NCBI GenBank assembly: GCA_964016885.1 | Contig: OZ024744.1 | Coordinates: forward strand, 66,154,001-66,218,000 | Origin: Eledone cirrhosa | Taxonomy: Eukaryota | DNA: 64,000 nt | Reading direction: 5' to 3' | Shown: positions 1 through 60,757 of the stretch, piece by piece | Layout of the letters: each line of letters begins with the position of its first letter | Numbering within the stretch: position 1 is the first letter of the stretch | The notes under the pieces: model-generated | The model's database searches: none | Told to the model about the DNA's origin: nothing | The model's input: only the letters and a program-made list of their open reading frames with translations | Position numbers and translations under genes: made by a program

Positions 1-3000
1 CAATCACCACCACCACTACCAACCATCAGCACAACCACAATCACCACCACCACTACCAACCATCACCACAACCACAATCAACACCACCACTACCAACCAT
101 CACCACAACCACAATCAACACCACCACTACCAACCACCAAAAGCACCACCACCACCACCACCACCACAACCACAATCACCACCACCACTACCAACCACCA
201 CCACAACCACAATCAACACCACCACTACCAACCACCAAAACCACCACCACCACAACCACAATCACCACCACCACTACCAACCACCACCACAACCACAATC
301 AACACCACCACTACCAACCACCAAAACCACCACCACCACCACCACCACCACAACCACAATCACAATCAACACCACCACTACCAACCACCAAAACCACCAC
401 CACCACAACCACAATCACCACCACCACTACCAACCATCAGCACAACCACAATCACCACCACCACTACCAACGATCACCACAACCACAATCAACACCACCA
501 CTACCAACCATCAGCACAACCACAATCACCACCACCACTACCAACCACCAAAACCACCACCACCCACCACACCACAAACACATCACCACCACCACTACCA
601 ACCCACCACCAACCACAATCAACACCACCACTACCAACCACCAAAACCACCACCACCACCACCACCACCACAACCACAATCACAATCAACACCACCACTA
701 CCAACCACCAAAACCACCACCACCACAACCACAATCACCACCACCACTACCAACCATCACCAACCAACCACAACACCACCACACAACCAACCACCACAAC
801 CACAATCAACACCACCACTACCAACCACCAAAACCACCACCACCACCACCACCACCACAACCACAATCACACCACCACAACCACCACCACCAACCACAAC
901 AACCACAACCACACACCACCACCACACCACCACACCACAACCACAACACCACCACTACCAACACCACCACCAACCACCAACCACCACCACCACAACCACC
1001 ACCACCACCACCACCACCACCACAACCACAATCAACACCACCACTACCAACCACCACCACAACCCAATCAACACCACCACTACCAACCACCACAACCACC
1101 ACCACACCACCACCACCACCACAACCACAACACAATCAACACCACCACTACCAACCACCAAAACCACACCACCACAACCACAATCACACACCACACCAAC
1201 CACCACCACCACCAACCACAATCAACACCACCACTACCAACCACCAAAACCACCACCACCACCCCACCACCACCACAACCACAATCACAATCAACACCAC
1301 CACTACCACCACCAAAACCACCACCACCACAACCACAATCAACACCACCACTACCAACCACCACCACAACCACAATCAACACCACCACTACCAACCACCA
1401 AAACCACCACCACCACCACCACCACAACCACAATCACAATCAACACCACCACTACCAACCACCAAAACCACCACCACCACAACCACAATCACCACCACCA
1501 CTACCAACCACCACCACAACCACAATCAACACCACCACTACCAACCACCAAAACCACCACCACCACAACCACAATCACCACCACCACTACCAACCACCAC
1601 CACAACCACAATCAACACCACCACTACCAACCACCAAAACCACCACCACCACCACCACCACCACAACCACAATCACAATCAACACCACCACTACCAACCA
1701 CCAAAACCACCACCACCACAACCACAATCAACACCAACACTACCAACCATCACCACAACCACAATCAACACCACCACTACCAACCACCACCACAACCACA
1801 ATCAACACCACCACTACCAACCACCAAAACCACCACCACCACCACCACCACCACAACCACAATCACAATCAACACCACCACTACCAACCACCAAAACCAC
1901 CACCACCACAACCACAATCAACACCAACACTACCAACCACCACCACAACCACAATCAACACCACCACTACCAACCACCAAAACCACCACCACCACAACCA
2001 CAATCAACACCAACACTACCAACCATCACCACAACCACAATCAACACCACCACTACCAACCACCACCACAACCACAATCAACACCACCACTACCAACCAC
2101 CAAAACCACCACCACCACCACCACCACCACAACCACAATCACAATCAACACCACCACTACCAACCACCAAAACCACCACCACCACAACCACAATCAACAC
2201 CAACACTACCAACCACCACCACAACCACAATCAACACCACCACTACCAACCACCAAAACCACCACCACCACAACCACAATCAACACCACCACTACCAACC
2301 ACCAAAACCACCACCACCACAACCACAATCAACACCAACACTACCAACCATCACCACAACCACAATCAACACCACCACTACCAACCACCACCACAACCAC
2401 AATCAACACCACCACTACCAACCACCAAAACCACCACCACCACCACCACCACCACAACCACAATCACAATCAACACCACCACTACCAACCACCAAAACCA
2501 CCACCACCACAACCACAATCACCACCACCACTACCAACCACCACCACAACCACAATCAACACCACCACTACCAACCACCAAAACCACCACCACCACAACC
2601 ACAATCACCACCAACACTACCAACCATCACCACAACCACAATCAACACCACCACTACCAACCACCAAAACCACCACCACCACCACCACAACCACAATCAC
2701 AATCAACACCACCACTACCAACCACCAAAACCACCACCACCACAACCACAATCAACACCACCACTACCAACCACCACCACAACCACAATCAACACCACCA
2801 CTACCAACCACCAAAACCACCACCACCACCACCACCACCACCACCACCACAACCACAATCACAATCAACACCACCACTACCAACCACCAAAACCACCACC
2901 ACCACCACCACCACAACCACAATCACAATCAACACCACCACTACCAACCACCAAAACCACCACCACCACAACCACAATCAACACCACCACTACCAACCAC

Positions 3001-5400
3001 CACCACAACCACAATCAACACCACCACTACCAACCACCAAAACCACCACCACCACCACCACCACCACCACCACAACCACAATCACAATCAACACCACCAC
3101 TACCAACCACCAAAACCACCACCACCACAACCACAATCACCACCACCACTACCAACCATCACCACAACCACAATCAACACCACCACTACCAACCACCAAA
3201 ACCACCACCACCACAACCACAATCAACACCACCACTACCAACCATCACCACAATCACAATCAACACCACCACTACCAACCACCAAAACCACCACCACCAC
3301 CACCACCACCACCACAACCACAATCACAATCAACACCACCACTACCAACCATCACCACAACCACAATCACCACCACCACTACCAACCACCACCACAACCA
3401 CAATCAACACCACCACTACCAACCATCACCACAACCACAATCACCACCACCACTACCAACCATCACCACAACCACAATCACCACCACCACTACCAACCAT
3501 CACCACAACCACAATCACCACCACCACTACCAACCACCACCACAACCACAATCAACACCACCACTACCAACCATCACCACAACCACAATCACCACCACCA
3601 CTACCAACCATCACCACAACCACAATCACCACCACCACTACCAACCATCACCACAACCACAATCACCACCACCACTACCAACCACCACCACAACCACAAT
3701 CAACACCACCACTACCAACCATCACCACAACCACAATCACCACCACCACTACCAACCATCACCACAACCACAATCACCACCACCACTACCAACCATCACC
3801 ACAACCACAATCACCACCACCACTACCAACCACCACCACAACCACAATCAACACCACCACTACCAACCACCACCACAACCACAATCAACACCACCACTAC
3901 CAACCACCAAAACCACCACCACCACCACCACCACCACCACAACCACAATCACAATCAACCACAATCACAATCAACACCACCACTACCAACCACCAAAACC
4001 ACCACCACCACAACCACAATCACCACCACCACTACCAACCATCACCACAACCACAATCAACACCACCACTACCAACCACCAAAACCACCACCACCACAAC
4101 CACAATCAACACCACCACTACCAACCATCACCACAATCACAATCAACACCACCACTACCAACCACCAAAACCACCACCACCACCACCACCACCACAACCA
4201 CAATCACAATCAACACCACCACTACCAACCACCAAAACCACCACCACCACAACCACAATCAACACCACCACTACCAACCATCACCACAATCACAATCAAC
4301 ACCACCACTACCAACCATCACCACAATCACAATCAACACCACCACTACCAACCATCACCACAATCACAATCAACACCACCACTACCAACCACCAAAACCA
4401 CCACCACCACCACCACAACCACAATCACAATCAACACCACCACTACCAACCACCAAAACCACCACCACCACCACCACAACCACAATCACAATCAACACCA
4501 CCACTACCAACCACCAAAACCACCACCACCACAACCACAATCAACACCACCACTACCAACCATCACCACAACCACAATCAACACCACCACTACCAACCAC
4601 CAAAACCACCACCACCACCACCACCACCACAACCACAATCACCACCACCACTACCAACCACCACCACAACCACAATCAACACCACCACTACCAACCACCA
4701 AAACCACCACCACCACCACCACAACCACAATCACAATCAACACCACCACTACCAACCACCTAAACCACCACCACCACCACCACAACCACAATCACAATCA
4801 ACACCACCACTACCAACCACCAAAACCACCACCACCACCACCACAACCACAATCACAATCAACACCACCACTACCAACCACCAAAACCACCACCACCACC
4901 ACCACAACCACAATCACAATCAACACCACCACTACCAACCACCAAAACCACCACCACCACCACCACCACCACAACCACAATCAACACCACCACTACCAAC
5001 CATCACCACAACCACAATCAACACCACCACTACCAACCACCAAAACCACCACCACCACCACCACCACCACAACCACAATCAACACCACCACTACCAACCA
5101 TCACCACAACCACAATCAACACCACCACTACCAACCACCAAAACCACCACCACCACCACCACCACCACCACAACCACAATCACCACCACCACTACCAACC
5201 ACCACCACAACCACAATCAACACCACCACTACCAACCACCAAAACCACAACCACCACCACCACCACCACCACCACCACCACTACCAACCACCAAAACCAC
5301 AACCACCACCACCACCACCACCACCACCACCACTACCAACCATCACCAAAACCACAATCACCAACACCACCACCACTACCAACAACAACAATAACCACAG
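1..5400. repeat. Complex (CCA/ACA)-rich satellite, 37/49-nt and longer unit variants
   Basis: Recurrent core AACCACAATCAACACCACCACTACCAACC; period 37 (3421->3458) and 49 (2221->2270); plus strand almost devoid of G; open at window start. Confidence 0.95.
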
Positions 5401-5673
5401 CCAAATCTCCCCCTCCCACACACACACACACTCCCACCATCCACAATCGTCATCATCACCATCATCATGATGGTGGTGGCCATCACTATCACCATCATTC
5501 ATCAACATCACTATCATCATCATCATCATCAATATCTCTGCCTCTCACCCACCTCCAAACCACATCTACACACTGGTATGGATTAGACAAGCCTGTTATA
5601 CATCATACCACAGCTTATTGATTCTTATCTGTGAAGCCCAATGTACTAAGATCTGTATTTAGCATTTCCTTCC

Positions 5674-5768
<95 letters not shown>

Positions 5769-6693: not shown

Positions 6694-6753
<60 letters not shown>

Positions 6754-6756
6754 CAT

Positions 6757-6955
6757 ATAACGAAGGAGGTGTAGTAAGGAACTAGATGGACCATAACGCA
6801 CCAGAGTACTCAATACTTAGGAGAGTAGAGTGGGTAATAGGAAAATGTTTAACCCCAACGGCAGAGCTCAAGCCGTTTCGACGGCTATTTCTGGAGTCCA
6901 GAAATAGCCGTCGAAACGGCTTGAGTTCTGCCGTCGGGGTCAAACATTTTCCTAT
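6757..6955 (-). mobile_element. Short fold-back element in (TA)n carrying the 3' half of a hammerhead (Penelope pLTR-like)
   Basis: 119-bp palindrome 6837-6955 centred on 6896 (3 mismatches); GAAAC-ggc..gcc-GTC motif; homologues at 33035-33193 and 34513-34680. Confidence 0.75.
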
Positions 6956-16506: not shown

Positions 16507-16754
16507 AAATAAAGGATTATGATTTCATGCAATTGACTTGTTTCGTCACTATATATATGATTATTTTCGAAATATATATATATATAAAGAATTAGTATAT
16601 CTACCAACATATATATACAGATGCATACCTATGCTAGCAAATATATAGGTTTTGTCTTAGTAACTTTGTGGTTCAATGCAAGGGATGCAGAACAATTATA
16701 TGAAAGACGTAAAATAAGAAAATTATAAAAATTAACTTACTTACTAAAATTTCA

Positions 16755-16838
16755 CTCCAACTAATTAGTTTCTGAAAGGGAATAAACATGGTTTCCGATT
16801 GGAACAACATGGAGAAAAATCCTTTCGTCATCAGGGAG
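16755..16838 (-). ncRNA. Type I hammerhead ribozyme motif, family C
   Basis: ctcc CTGATGA cgaaagg..long stem II..cctttca GAAAC taatta GTT ggag. Confidence 0.75.
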
Positions 16839-17627
16839 GTCTATTCTCAGCTAAGTTCCCAGGCAATGCGTGGACACAGGGAACTTATACAAAAATAATT
16901 CAGTGGATGGAAAAAAGCAAGCGAGGACTAAATTCCAGGACATTGAAAAAATCACTGCCTACTTGGTCGGTGGCAAATTCAAAAGAATCAATCACGTGAC
17001 ATCGAGGTTAATCAGTGAGGAGCGGGGTGCTAATAAGACAGTTGCCTGACTATTACCATAGTAGTAGTTTTGGCAAATTTTTGCTCAACAAAATAATTTG
17101 GAGATAATTATAAAGAATTAGTATATCTACCAACATATATATACAGATGCATACCTATGCTAGCAAATATATAGGTTTTGTTTTAGTAACTTTGTGGTTC
17201 AATGCAAGGGGATTTTATTTTACGTCTTTCATATAATTGTTCTGCATCCCCTTGCATTGAACCACAAAATTACTAAGACAAAACCTATATATTTGCTAGC
17301 ATAGGTATGCATCTGTATATATATGTTGGTAGATATACTAATTCTTTATAATTATCTCCAAATTATTTTGTTGAGCAAAAATTTGCCAAAACTACTACTA
17401 TGGTTCATAGTAATAGTCAGGCAACTGTCTCATTAGCACCCCACTCCTCACTGATTAACCTCGATGTCACGTGATTGATTCTTTTGAATTTGCCACCGAC
17501 CAAGTAGGCAGTGATTTTTTCAATGTCCTGGAATTTAGTTCTTGCTTGCTTTTTTCCATCCACTGAATTATTTTTGTATAAGTTCCCTGTGTCCACGCAT
17601 TGCCTGGGAACTTAACTGAGAATAGAC

Positions 17628-17711
17628 CTCCCTGATGACGAAAGGATTTTTCTCCATGTTGTTCTGATCGGAAACCATGTTTATTCCCTTTCAGAAACTA
17701 ATTAGTTGGAG
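17628..17711 (+). ncRNA. Type I hammerhead ribozyme motif, family C
   Basis: Same as 16755-16838; palindromic stem III AACTAATTAGTT; stem I ctcc/ggag. Confidence 0.75.
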
Positions 17712-17760
17712 TGAAATTTTAGTAAGTAAGTTAATTTTTATAATTTTCTTATTTTACGTC

Positions 17761-17805
<45 letters not shown>

Positions 17806-17809
<4 letters not shown>

Positions 17810-18002
17810 ATGTGGGAAAATAATTCAAACTCAATTTTTAAAAAATCAAGACAGATTTATCAGCATATTTTGTGAAATCCAGGGAGAAACCAATAGAGTC
17901 TTAACTCTGAATAAAATAAAGTAAAATAAAGTTTAAATACTCATCCTTCAATTTGGAAAAACTACAAATGCTCTATATAGTCTTAAAAAGACTATATAGA
18001 GC

Positions 18003-18054
<52 letters not shown>

Positions 18055-18241
18055 GCTCTATATAGTCTTTTTAAGACTATATAGAGCATTTGTAGTTTTT
18101 CCAAATTGAAGGATGAGTATTTAAACTTTATTTTATTCAGAGTTAAGACTCTATTGGTTTCTCCCTGGATTTCACAAAATATGCTGATAAATCTGTCTTG
18201 ATTTTTTTAAAATTGAGTTTGAATTATTTTCCCACATCTTA
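17806..18241. repeat. ~200-bp-arm inverted repeat centred on (TA)n with nested hairpins
   Basis: Arms 17806-18005 and 18051-18241; each contains hairpin aatgctctatatagtctt-NN-aagactatatagagcatt. Confidence 0.9.
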
Positions 18242-23807: not shown

Positions 23808-23985
23808 TTTAATAGAAAAAAAATGGCTTCTACAGGACTGTTTCATTCGGGCTTCCTGATGATTTCTCCCGAATGAAACAGTTCTAGTCCGGTAGAAGCC
23901 ATTTCTATATTAAATATTTATACTCTGCTATGTATTGAGTACCTTACTTACTGTGGTTACCCCCAATTGAACCCGGGATAAACTT
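23808..23985 (+). mobile_element. Fold-back element, family D, with hammerhead-like core in the loop
   Basis: aaatggcttctac..tgtttcattcggg / cccgaatgaaaca..gtagaagccattt arms around CTGATGA (23856); flanked by (TA)n. Confidence 0.65.
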
Positions 23986-32366: not shown

Positions 32367-33010
32367 CAGGCTTTGCTCTTCCTCTCAACCACATCATCTT
32401 CTGTATTCCCAAATCTTTGCTCCCAAATACAGGAAGTCCTCAACCAATTCTATCGGCTTCCCGCCTACATTAGTAATCTTCTCTGGCTTCTTAATATTCT
32501 CTACCAGATACTTCGTCTTAATCTCATTCATTCTCAGCCCCACTCTCATCGACACAGTCTCAACCTCCTGAATCAAATCCTCTGCCTCCTTCACTGTGTT
32601 TGACACCAAAACTATGTCGTCGGCAAATTCAGCATCCGATATCTTTATTGCCTTAACTCTCCTGCTCTGAGCCGGTGTTACAGTAAAGCCAAAGTCCTGG
32701 TGTTTCTCCAGCGCAAGGCGCATACAATAGTCCACTGCAATTATAAAAAGGTAGGGAGCCAATGTATCTCCCTGGAGCACTTCAGCCATAATCTCAAAGA
32801 ACTCTGTCATCCCATCAGGACTTGGGCTTTGGTGTTGGTGTCGAGCAGTGATATCAGGTCCACTATCTTCTTGGGGATTCCATAAGCCTGTAAGATCTTC
32901 ATCAAGCAGTGATGGGCCACAGAATCAAAGGCCTTCCTGAAGTCAATGAAAACCATGACTGCAGGAAGGCACTTTGCTCTAGCTCCCTCTAATATCCTCC
33001 TCAGCATCAT
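32367..33010 (-). mobile_element. LINE reverse-transcriptase fragment (RTE-group, distinct from the 25-kb family)
   Basis: FIDFRKAFDSV, VLQGDTLAPYLF, EFADDIVL, FLYLG. Confidence 0.9.
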
Positions 33011-33034
33011 ATATATATATATATATATATATAT

Positions 33035-33193
33035 CAGATAGGGTGTGGTAAAAAACAAGGTGGACCATAACCCACTAGAGTACTCGATACTTGGGGTAGT
33101 AGAACCATGGCGGCTGAGCTCCAGCAGTTTTGGAAGCTAGATCTAGCTGTCAAAACGGCCGGAGTTCAACCGTTGGGGTCCTGAATCTTTTCA
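33035..33193. mobile_element. Diverged copy of the 6757-6955 fold-back family
   Basis: ggaccataac..agagtactc..atactt shared; hairpin centre agctagatctagct. Confidence 0.65.
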
Positions 33194-33299: not shown

Positions 33300-33550
33300 A
33301 TAGAAGAATTGAAGTCAGTGTTGCAGCATATGTACAAACTTTATTGGTAAATTACAATTGTTTCAATATTGGAACAATTGTAATATACCAATAAAGTTTG
33401 TTCGCTGACTTTGATTATCCTTAATCTATTTACACTCAGCAAACTACAGCTGCCTTAACTCTAGAATACAACCCAAACAAGATGGACTTTGTAACAGCAT
33501 TGAGTGCTTCTAATGGGACACAGTCTGTAACAGTAGTTACATACCTAACA
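33300..33550. mobile_element. Fold-back element, family F
   Basis: 34-bp arms 33334-33367/33368-33401 containing GAAACAATTGTA..AATAAA; tail gcaaactacag..acccaa..acagcattgag shared with 35210-35290. Confidence 0.7.
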
Positions 33551-33574
33551 TGTATAATAATAATAGTAATAATA

Positions 33575-34092
33575 TATGAAATACCAACAGAAAAAAGATG
33601 GTACAAATACACACCAGAAAAAGTATCAGAGAATGACAAAGCAACCATTCTCTGGGATGTGCCAATACATACAGACAGAGAGATCAAAGACAACTGACTA
33701 GATATTATAGTCAAAGACCACAAAGAAAAAAATGCCTTCTAATAGATATATCTATCCCCACAGATGACAAAATATCTTCCAATGAAATAGAGATACTCTC
33801 CAAATATAAAGATCTAGAGATAGAAATCACTCGAATGTGGAAAAATGAAAGCAGAAACAATATCTATAATAATAGGTGCTCTGGGAATGATAAAAAAACA
33901 CAGACAAATACATAACCAAAACCTTACAAATATATACTGCATACTAACTTACAAATATATACTGCATACAAAAGATAGCACTACTAGGCACTGCACACAT
34001 AAGAAAAGTACTACCATTACAATAGAAACAACACCAGCAAAAACTACACTGCTCATAACCAAGTGCACAGAGCTGTGCTCGGTAAAGCAGTA
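33575..34092 (+). mobile_element. R4/Dong-type non-LTR retrotransposon 3' fragment (RLE endonuclease region)
   Basis: WYKYTPEKVSENDKATILWDVPIHTDR..DIIVKD..LIDISIP..KYKDLEIEITRMW..IIIGALG; (TAA)-rich flanks. Confidence 0.85.
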
Positions 34093-34480: not shown

Positions 34481-34512
<32 letters not shown>

Positions 34513-34517
<5 letters not shown>

Positions 34518-34680
34518 ATGTATGACCCCGACGGCAGAGCTCAAGCCGTTTCGACGGCTATTTCGAAATGGCTTGAGCTCTGCCGTCATACATTTTCCTA
34601 TTACCCACTCTACCACCCTAAGTATTGAGTAATCTGGTGCTTTATGGTCCAGCTGGTTCCTTACCACAACTCCTTCATTA
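34513..34680 (+). mobile_element. Copy of the 6757-6955 fold-back family
   Basis: gaccccgacggcagagctcaagccgtttcgacggctatttc then inverted arm and shared tail. Confidence 0.8.
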
Positions 34681-34959
34681 TATATATTTATAGGGAGAGT
34701 ACTATTCAGCTCAATTTGGGGGGCTATTAGCCAGACCAACTAAAATAATTCAGTTTTAACTCTTATAATTTCTTCTTTATGATAATATGTTAAATTACAC
34801 CTCTGAGTTTGATAATTTATCTGTATATTTTATCTTTTCATTGAGATGTCTAAGTATTATAGATAAATAATTTTTTAATTGATACATATATATATATATA
34901 TGTATCTCTGCAAGATATATATATATATATATATATGTATCTCTGCAAGAGAGAGAGAG

Positions 34960-49520: not shown

Positions 49521-49800
49521 TCATCATCATCATTTCATTTTACGTCCGCTTTTTCCCTGCTTGCAAGGGTGGGACGGGAACTGATGCTGGCTTGATTTCT
49601 ACAGCTGGATGCCCTTCCTAACACCAACCTCATTTACAGTGAGTGCTGGGTGCTTTTTTGCCGTGGCACATCCATGACCACTTTGCAGTGGAATGATAGG
49701 GACCCCAGTCTCTATCATCTCATTTCTACAGCTGAGTAAACTGGAGCAATGTGAAATAAAGTGTCTTGCTCAAGGAAACAACACATCACCCAGTCTGAGA
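49399..49800 (-). mobile_element. CORE SINE in permuted order (body 49517-49800, head 49399-49483)
   Basis: Both ends share the 20-nt acacatYacccRgtctgaga. Confidence 0.8.
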
Positions 49801-49818
49801 TATATATATATATATATA

Positions 49819-50160
49819 TGGAGGCACATGGCTTAGTGGTTAGAGCATTGGCCTTGCAATCGAAAGGTTGTGAGTTCAATTCTCAAACCAGGAGATGTGT
49901 TGTTTCCTTGAGCAAGACACTTTATTTCACATTGCTCCAGTTTACTCAACTGTAGAAATGAGATGATAGGGACTGGGGTCCATATCATTCCACTGCAAAG
50001 TGGTCGTGCAGGTGCCACGGCAAAAAAGCATCCAGCACTCACTGTAAATGAGGTTGGTGTTAGGAAGGGCATCCGGCTGTAGAAATCAAGCCAGAATCAG
50101 TTCCCGTCCCACCCTTGCAAGCAAGGAAAAAGCGGTCGTAAAATGAAATGATGATGATGA
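49819..50160 (+). mobile_element. CORE-type SINE with RTE tail, full length
   Basis: Family of 18366-18692. Confidence 0.9.
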
Positions 50161-60699: not shown

Positions 60700-60757
60700 T
60701 CCATTTACCAGTGGTTTCGTAAAAGCAAAACATTTTGCTTTCAATCATCAGAATGAA
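60700..60757 (-). ncRNA. Type I hammerhead ribozyme, family J
   Basis: Reverse complement of 60838-60895. Confidence 0.85.

Follow-up and report, generated by a model that had tools for sequence, protein, structure and literature searches.

The closest described relatives of the element analysed here are the Penelope-like elements (PLEs) of the Hydra clade, which, in the accessible text of the defining study (Craig et al. 2021, PMC8557442), carry the protein motifs DKT, RWK, CxCX5C, CxxC and CxH without CX2-5CxxC, have a C-terminal GIY-YIG endonuclease, and insert into (TA)n as inverted 5'-truncated copies with a tail. For a second relative, Poseidon of Anolis carolinensis (PAc), two internal reverse transcriptase (RT) start sites that bound the tail have been shown in vitro; both strands of an AT-rich target are cut and extended, and a hammerhead ribozyme lies within the pseudo-LTR, while the inverted junction is not modelled in the accessible text (Frangieh et al. 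2024, PMC11167929). Self-priming, on the other hand, has been proposed for Penelope on the basis of palindromes at head-to-head junctions (Arkhipova et al. 2013, PMC3846280). Both the formation of inverted PLE ends and the role of the hammerhead are stated as open in the available parts of the two more recent papers (PMC8557442, PMC11167929).

An inverted insertion at 6757-6955 of the window, that is, of the whole 64,000-nucleotide stretch analysed, shares with these systems the inverted truncated copy, the tail, the AT-rich target, the two sites bounding the tail and the hammerhead in a pseudo-LTR. Its family serves as a genome-scale test of how such ends arise, and favours twin initiation over self-priming. 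In other words, we consider it probable that the insertion comprises two separate cDNAs, each started at its own internal RNA site from one strand of a nicked (TA)n target, run off at the RNA 5' end and joined head to head.

The insertion and its parent element

A 119-bp palindrome occupies 6837-6955, with 59-bp arms about a centre at 6896 and three mismatches (6866/6926, 6857/6935 and 6851/6941), every one a transition, just as the preliminary description of this DNA had claimed. It is prolonged by an unpaired extension of 80 nt (6757-6836) and flanked left and right by (TA)n. With the G of the GAAA motif numbered 0 and negative numbers lying upstream, its parts are as follows.

6700-6756, no strand: (TA)n target, left flank; the right flank follows 6955, and no target duplication is readable
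6757-6895, minus strand: arm with the tail, spanning -16 to +122 of the element as aligned by BLAST with natural long copies
6757-6836, minus strand: 80-nt 'tail' between the 3' end sites +42 and +122, both of which are internal in tandem full-length units
6857-6879, minus strand: matching hammerhead half of the tail arm, with the triplet C mutated at 6857
6895-6955, plus strand: tail-less arm, positions -18 to +42, starting where 5' ends of the family are most frequent
6902-6910, plus strand: 3' strand of the true hammerhead stem II; the partner strand and the U3-A8 core are lost from this copy
6913-6935, plus strand: GAAA, stem III and the GUC triplet, with cleavage predicted at 6935/6936; an end peak lies at the equivalent subfamily B site
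6936-6955, plus strand: stem I 3' strand, up to the short 3' end site

GAAA, stem III and the triplet had been noted on each arm, and are indeed there but for the one mutated base on the minus strand; the arm had accordingly been read as the 3' half of a Penelope-type hammerhead, and this reading stands. An inverted 5' end with a tail, also recognised at the outset, is known Penelope architecture. The copy is assigned to subfamily A and, to judge from sequence, is a 5'-truncated inverted insertion of a Hydra-clade PLE in (TA)n.

The parent was found by walking upstream from tail-anchored copies, unbroken ones included. It consists of tandem 3,542-bp units with a single open ORF of ~720 aa, the tail end running on into the ORF leader. 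By motif reading, RT motifs stand at 252 and 347 and a GIY-YIG-type motif at 589 of 718 aa, while Pfam and PDB sequence searches with the ORF returned nothing. One ORF with RT and GIY-YIG, tandem units, an inverted 5'-truncated copy and an optional tail are together the features of an endonuclease-bearing (EN+) PLE. DKT, CxCX5C, CxxC and CxH are all present and CX2-5CxxC is absent, and these motifs, which match the clade definition, place the parent putatively in the Hydra clade, as does its insertion into (TA)n. It departs from the clade, as far as the accessible text goes (PMC8557442), in having RWR for RWK, a unit of 3.5 kb where the listed families are mostly below 3 kb, a tail of 80 nt against 30-40, and a U3-A8 hammerhead with a long loop II, whereas every hammerhead in File S2 of that study has the canonical C3-G8 core that is a described feature of the clade. 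A Naiad assignment was ruled out, the endonuclease being C-terminal. The short copies are inverted pairs, or solos without a core, rather than the tandem hammerhead units of non-LTR retrozymes, and the palindrome stands at one end only with variable junctions, which is not the arrangement of a MITE. Among 8,000 scored candidates, 2,219 are relatives of the parent protein, with DKT and CxCX5C in 112 of the best 120 homologues (P0001-P0120); the Hydra clade, as gauged by such motifs, appears to extend in public assemblies far beyond the 27 families that the accessible text named in 2021 (PMC8557442). At one locus (G000:C1:91473240-91493735, L290-L292) five near-identical tandem 3,542-bp units are closed by an inverted truncated copy, an arrangement compatible with a template that was multimeric or circular, or with a duplication in the recent past. 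Three units of one tandem array are 2-5 substitutions and one indel apart.

The family is abundant. In the 3.0-Gb genome the 199-bp unit has 3,968 first-look candidates, the best 30 of which have common outer ends and differing centres, and the tail 28-mer has 38,283 exact copies. Thousands of near-200-bp copies with common outer ends would be expected if a single palindromic master, a MITE- or SINE-like unit, had been amplified whole. Such a history is nonetheless highly improbable: 30 of 33 junctions in an unbiased set are distinct, the copies form a continuous size series from short ones to full-length ORF copies, and there are no terminal inverted repeats at both ends.

The U3-A8 hammerhead

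Unbroken copies contain a predicted type I hammerhead with a U3-A8 core in place of C3-G8. Three helices surround this core, with the pairs G10.1-C11.1 and A15.1-U16.1 and an NUH cleavage triplet. Intact cores have U3 in 61 and A8 in all 63 loci, C3-G8 in none, and any of A, G, U or C at position 7, counts that are to be read with the fact that most of these loci were fetched with U3-A8-like queries. The preliminary description had made CTGANGA upstream of the hairpin in non-palindromic copies a test of its reading; in the letter that test went against it, since no C3-G8 core was found, yet the predicted ribozyme is present as U3-A8. In other words, unbroken copies lack CTGANGA because their core is a variant, and not because the ribozyme is absent. 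The motif does occur 35 times upstream of the 3' half, but the 30 matches viewed are junction filler or flank. Two loci, L143 and L319, have C3 opposite A8, that is, a mismatched core.

Support for the fold comes from 19 copies of three related subfamilies, in which the helices are paired in 95.5% of cells, against at most 52% in slid controls, and three stem II pairs are changed on both sides. The three-way junction is the minimum-energy fold in subfamilies A, B and C. The probability of the G10.1-C11.1 pair is 0.62 in B versus 0.14 and 0.10 in the other two, and the folding z-score of the ribozyme is -0.21 in B and -3.58 in A. Stem II itself extends from -53 to -3 with a loop of ~33 nt, its partner strand lying 45-53 nt upstream and being lost in palindromic copies. 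The central hairpin of the palindrome, which had been taken for stem II, therefore only mirrors loop II on its 3' side.

The U3-A8 core has precedent in the Cercyon PLEs of Schistosoma mansoni (PMC4209133, accessible text). The minimal U3-A8 hammerheads of Cercyon resemble the present ones in core covariation, in their location within a PLE pseudo-LTR, in a bulge at the base of stem II and in dual motifs on opposite strands; those motifs are, however, minimal and of dimer type, whereas stem III here has 5-6 bp and a palindromic loop (Cervera and de la Pena 2014, PMC4209133, accessible text). No report of activity of the U3-A8 form was found in the accessible text of that paper. The predicted ribozyme is thus a new variant for the Hydra clade, U3-A8 itself being already known elsewhere. 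Searches for CTGANGA only will overlook it, despite the 2,917 exact copies of its 23-mer core in this genome.

Arm ends and the probable joining of two cDNAs

The arms were read in the first 96 tail copies in genome order, of 100 listed. An inverted arm adjoins the tail copy in 76 of the 96 and ends at +42/43 in 64 of those 76. The turning points are non-random, as had been claimed, with 102 of 152 paired arm 5' ends lying at -11 to -25; genome-wide there are 13,377 exact double-arm junctions (both arms past -11, within 30 nt) and none in the reversed control. Among 75 pairs, as measured with an aligner that runs a few bases too far, the tail-less arm extends beyond the tail arm by more than 5 nt in 19 and falls short of it by more than 5 nt in 14, the other 42 agreeing within 5 nt, and a stricter caller applied to 33 pairs gave 12 versus 14, with 7 equal. 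The 19:14 asymmetry is balanced (p 0.49). Since the tail-less arm is often the longer and the tail arm is often the longer, neither can be a copy of the other. Moreover, the presence of two fixed 3' sites 80 nt apart makes it likely that two cDNAs were primed separately and then joined, and as the arms are mostly of one haplotype (at least 3 mismatches in 8 of 33 pairs, against 19.8 at random), both were likely copied from a single RNA, or from RNA of a single source locus. There are also pairs in which both arms have the tail, both have the short end, or the haplotypes differ (L014, L058, L153, L193). In long copies the asymmetry extends to kilobases, the tail-less arm of L124 measuring 2.7 kb and its tail arm 0.5 kb. 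Solo copies end at either 3' site and are truncated in the same 5' zone as the pairs.

The original proposal was that the growing cDNA folds back on the hairpin of stem II and there primes its own second strand, and the clustering of turns beside stem II, the common haplotype of most arms and the published self-priming proposal (PMC3846280, accessible text) all accord with this. The exact signature, a mirror arm running into the native loop, was however matched once genome-wide, and a turn on the distal loop II hairpin 21 times, against the 13,377 junctions; most arms stop short of the stem II 5' strand. Any form of snap-back predicts an inverted arm that is a subset of the tail arm, contrary to the 19 versus 14 observed, and gives no reason either for solo copies truncated in the same zone or for a stop at +42. 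The proposal is refuted for the bulk of copies, and as a general account is scarcely credible.

A less specific version has one cDNA fold back wherever 1-4 nt are self-complementary, the longer inverted arms arising afterwards through asymmetric deletion at the palindrome centre. Palindrome centres are unstable, junction overlaps of 1-4 nt are common, and junctions at the self-complementarity of stem III account for 16 of 50 listed short palindromes (by eye); this minority of short palindromes could be true fold-backs. As a general explanation it is very unlikely, in that the asymmetry is balanced and may span kilobases, and in that it leaves out the tail-less solos and the four pairs named above. 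Some fillers, in L263, L427 and others, are copied from nearby element sequence, much as end joining makes templated insertions or as a template jump made more than once would.

For twin initiation, by analogy with the Anolis Poseidon enzyme, both strands of the nicked (TA)n target would prime, at RNA sites 80 nt apart; each cDNA would likely run off the RNA 5' end, and the two would join head to head by template jump or microhomology with anything from no filler to a few bases. The RNA would start at -18, and +23 would be the end of a cleaved RNA in subfamily B. In LINE-1 twin priming, too, both target strands prime and a 5' inversion results, the inverted piece there lying upstream without overlap, whereas here both cDNAs would copy the same stretch from fixed sites and so give a palindrome. 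The arm ends fit two RT start sites bounding the tail, as shown for PAc, better than they fit the self-priming model, which works on an antisense template (PMC3846280, accessible text); the arm lengths and 3' ends counted here speak for two cDNAs, each made on a sense template.

The position at which the RNA would start is indicated by the ends at -17/-18. In a tally of 410 arms, of mixed sampling and with a few duplicate rows, the modal 5' ends are -18 (46) and -17 (43), then -14 (32) and -12 (31); native ends also form a shoulder from -19 to -25. Subfamily C turns at the same position despite a different loop II, mostly with 0-1 filler base (771 junctions, 50 listed). A five-base initiator-like motif in this zone, the initiator pattern being YYANWYY, is conserved in A, B and C; a TATA-like stretch lies ~30 nt upstream of -18 in A and B, and none was found when it was looked for in C. 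Of the 29 informative arms ending at -18, 16 have an untemplated G on the 5' side, compared with 29 of 119 arms ending at other positions (p 0.003), although C is nearly as frequent next to -18 (12/29) and T is excluded there by definition. By eye, 65 distinct solo loci comprise 31 direct or T, 16 native-like, 11 G, 4 C and 3 A, such that G stands at 11 of 18 non-T solo junctions (20 if two native variants are included; p 0.014-0.04). Untemplated G in L1 and SVA insertions has been attributed to cap copying (PMC3287187, accessible text), and an internal promoter inside the pseudo-LTR is known in Drosophila Penelope. On this basis we lean towards -18 as the putative transcription start of the element RNA. 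Short copies may be re-transcribed from such an internal promoter.

The contending view retains two cDNAs and makes -18 an early RT stop rather than an RNA start, caused by a protein on loop II of the priming pseudo-LTR or by low processivity ~60 nt after initiation. Several features point that way, namely the shoulder reaching -25, the small hairpin in loop II that overlaps the -18 zone, the similar ends of family D 50-60 nt from its short start (by eye), and the ORF-leader copies: among 27 of these only 2-3 begin within -15 to -21 and 19 run on beyond -100, which weakens the reading of a monomeric mRNA, as the simple model predicts more starts near -18. Nevertheless, an early stop appears rather unlikely, given that tail-primed arms halt at the same place after 140 nt, that in the 60756 family (two copies) ~130 nt separate the turn from the start, that subfamily C junctions are sharp, being blunt or one-base, and that there is both an untemplated G excess and a conserved initiator-like motif. 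The zone is passed by 20 of 23 ORF-derived copies, against 10 of 63 tail-primed arms, and is therefore no fixed structural block. Two further readings were dropped: a fixed ruler of ~60 nt, which fits family D but neither the tail arms nor the 60756 family, and a splice site at -18, the arms retaining the candidate acceptor bases.

The second set of ends lies at +23, the first base after the GUC triplet. Two young subfamily B haplotypes gave 1,503 pattern matches for arm ends at +5 to +26. When 100 of these were inspected by eye and 17 indel-shifted rows dropped, 40 of 83 ended at +23, with 4 more that are ambiguous and blunt, and no other position from +5 to +26 had more than 5 ends among the matches listed; a scripted check of the first 30 rows placed 14 of 27 at +23. 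Of the 50 short palindromes listed, 24 have both of their arms ending at +23/24. Had synthesis halted at the foot of stem III, ends at +22 would be expected instead. The peak is weak in subfamily A (3/17, and about 6/60 by eye), where the reference is substituted at +20 and five calls at '+21' truly lie further upstream, and in family D the equivalent cut site has no peak (2/21). Its weakness in A and absence in D show that the method does not itself create the peak, and equally that the peak is not general. The ends at +23 in subfamily B are very probably the 5' ends left by cleavage at the U3-A8 hammerhead, a reading drawn from the position of copy ends. We infer from this that the cut RNA serves as a template in vivo, where the cut would separate both start sites from the upstream ORF. 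The copy ends are thus indirect in vivo support for U3-A8 cutting at the canonical site. By comparison, with PAc no RNA reads ended at the ribozyme site and cleavage was dispensable in vitro (PMC11167929, accessible text).

In the literature searched, which includes few subscription papers, we found no account of copies ending at the cut site or at an RNA start; within it the mapping of ends is new, the inverted architecture and the U3-A8 variant being separately known. It is also a cheap method for any high-copy family. A combined and bolder reading can be offered tentatively. Tens of thousands of these insertions would form a fossil map of germ-line RNA at single-nucleotide resolution; the promoter would start transcription in loop II, leaving the 5' ribozyme disarmed and the 3' one whole; the U3-A8 ribozyme would cut in vivo, detaching the ORF from the two priming sites and so restraining full-length transposition; and every inverted Penelope end would reflect twin initiation on one RNA.

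Other inverted copies in the window

Four further inverted copies, described earlier as folding back at or beside a hammerhead core, bear on how general the turn is.

23808-23983, plus strand: family D, another Penelope-type family; canonical C3-G8 core at 23856-23862 and an inverted short arm
33035-33193, minus strand: diverged subfamily C copy, an inverted pair with an internal deletion in the tail arm
33334-33510, plus strand: family F, older; minimal canonical hammerhead with a long loop II, the copy turning in the stem II 3' strand
34510-34681, plus strand: same-family copy, asymmetric; the tail arm begins at -2 and the tail-less inverted arm runs to -12

The homologues at 34513 and 33035 are real but are not folded back at the same place, as had been thought: the arms of the 6757-6955 copy reach -16 and -18 and those of the 34513 copy -2 and -12 (BLAST to long copies). 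What looked like a different central hairpin at 33035 mirrors sequence that belongs to the diverged subfamily itself. Inspection by eye of 30 loci each shows that family D does end at or just 5' of its core, an extra G being noted there, but with no clustering at stem II, while family F, instead of turning at or beside its core, has ends that are spread out. The family at 60756, known from two window copies (a tail query gave no matches), turns ~45 nt upstream of its core. There is, then, no general turn at stem II across these three families.

Between 15775 and 60844 lie twenty CTGANGA...GAAA core-like matches that show some stem II pairing, many of them in pairs or in repeated families, and on these matches several other Penelope-type families are putatively present in the window. 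An Rfam scan of the window gave 260 matches, and the 150 listed include no hammerhead family, only microsatellite-driven miRNA-like noise. A long inverted pair at 16697-17769 has 363-nt arms of 98% identity, each with a whole core, about a 347-nt centre that, by eye, apparently holds the inverted left flank and the inverted 3' end of the element. At 17922-18135 there is a perfect palindrome with 107-bp arms, centred on a (TA)n run and with an 18-bp hairpin in each arm, and at 49521-50160 an inverted pair with 280-nt arms (95%) without a visible core. The fragments at 32500-33010 and 33470-34070 we take, by eye, to be like coding sequence for a non-LTR reverse transcriptase and restriction-like endonuclease. 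Finally, positions 1-5700 have a strong strand skew, with a GC skew near -1, and are probably a simple satellite.
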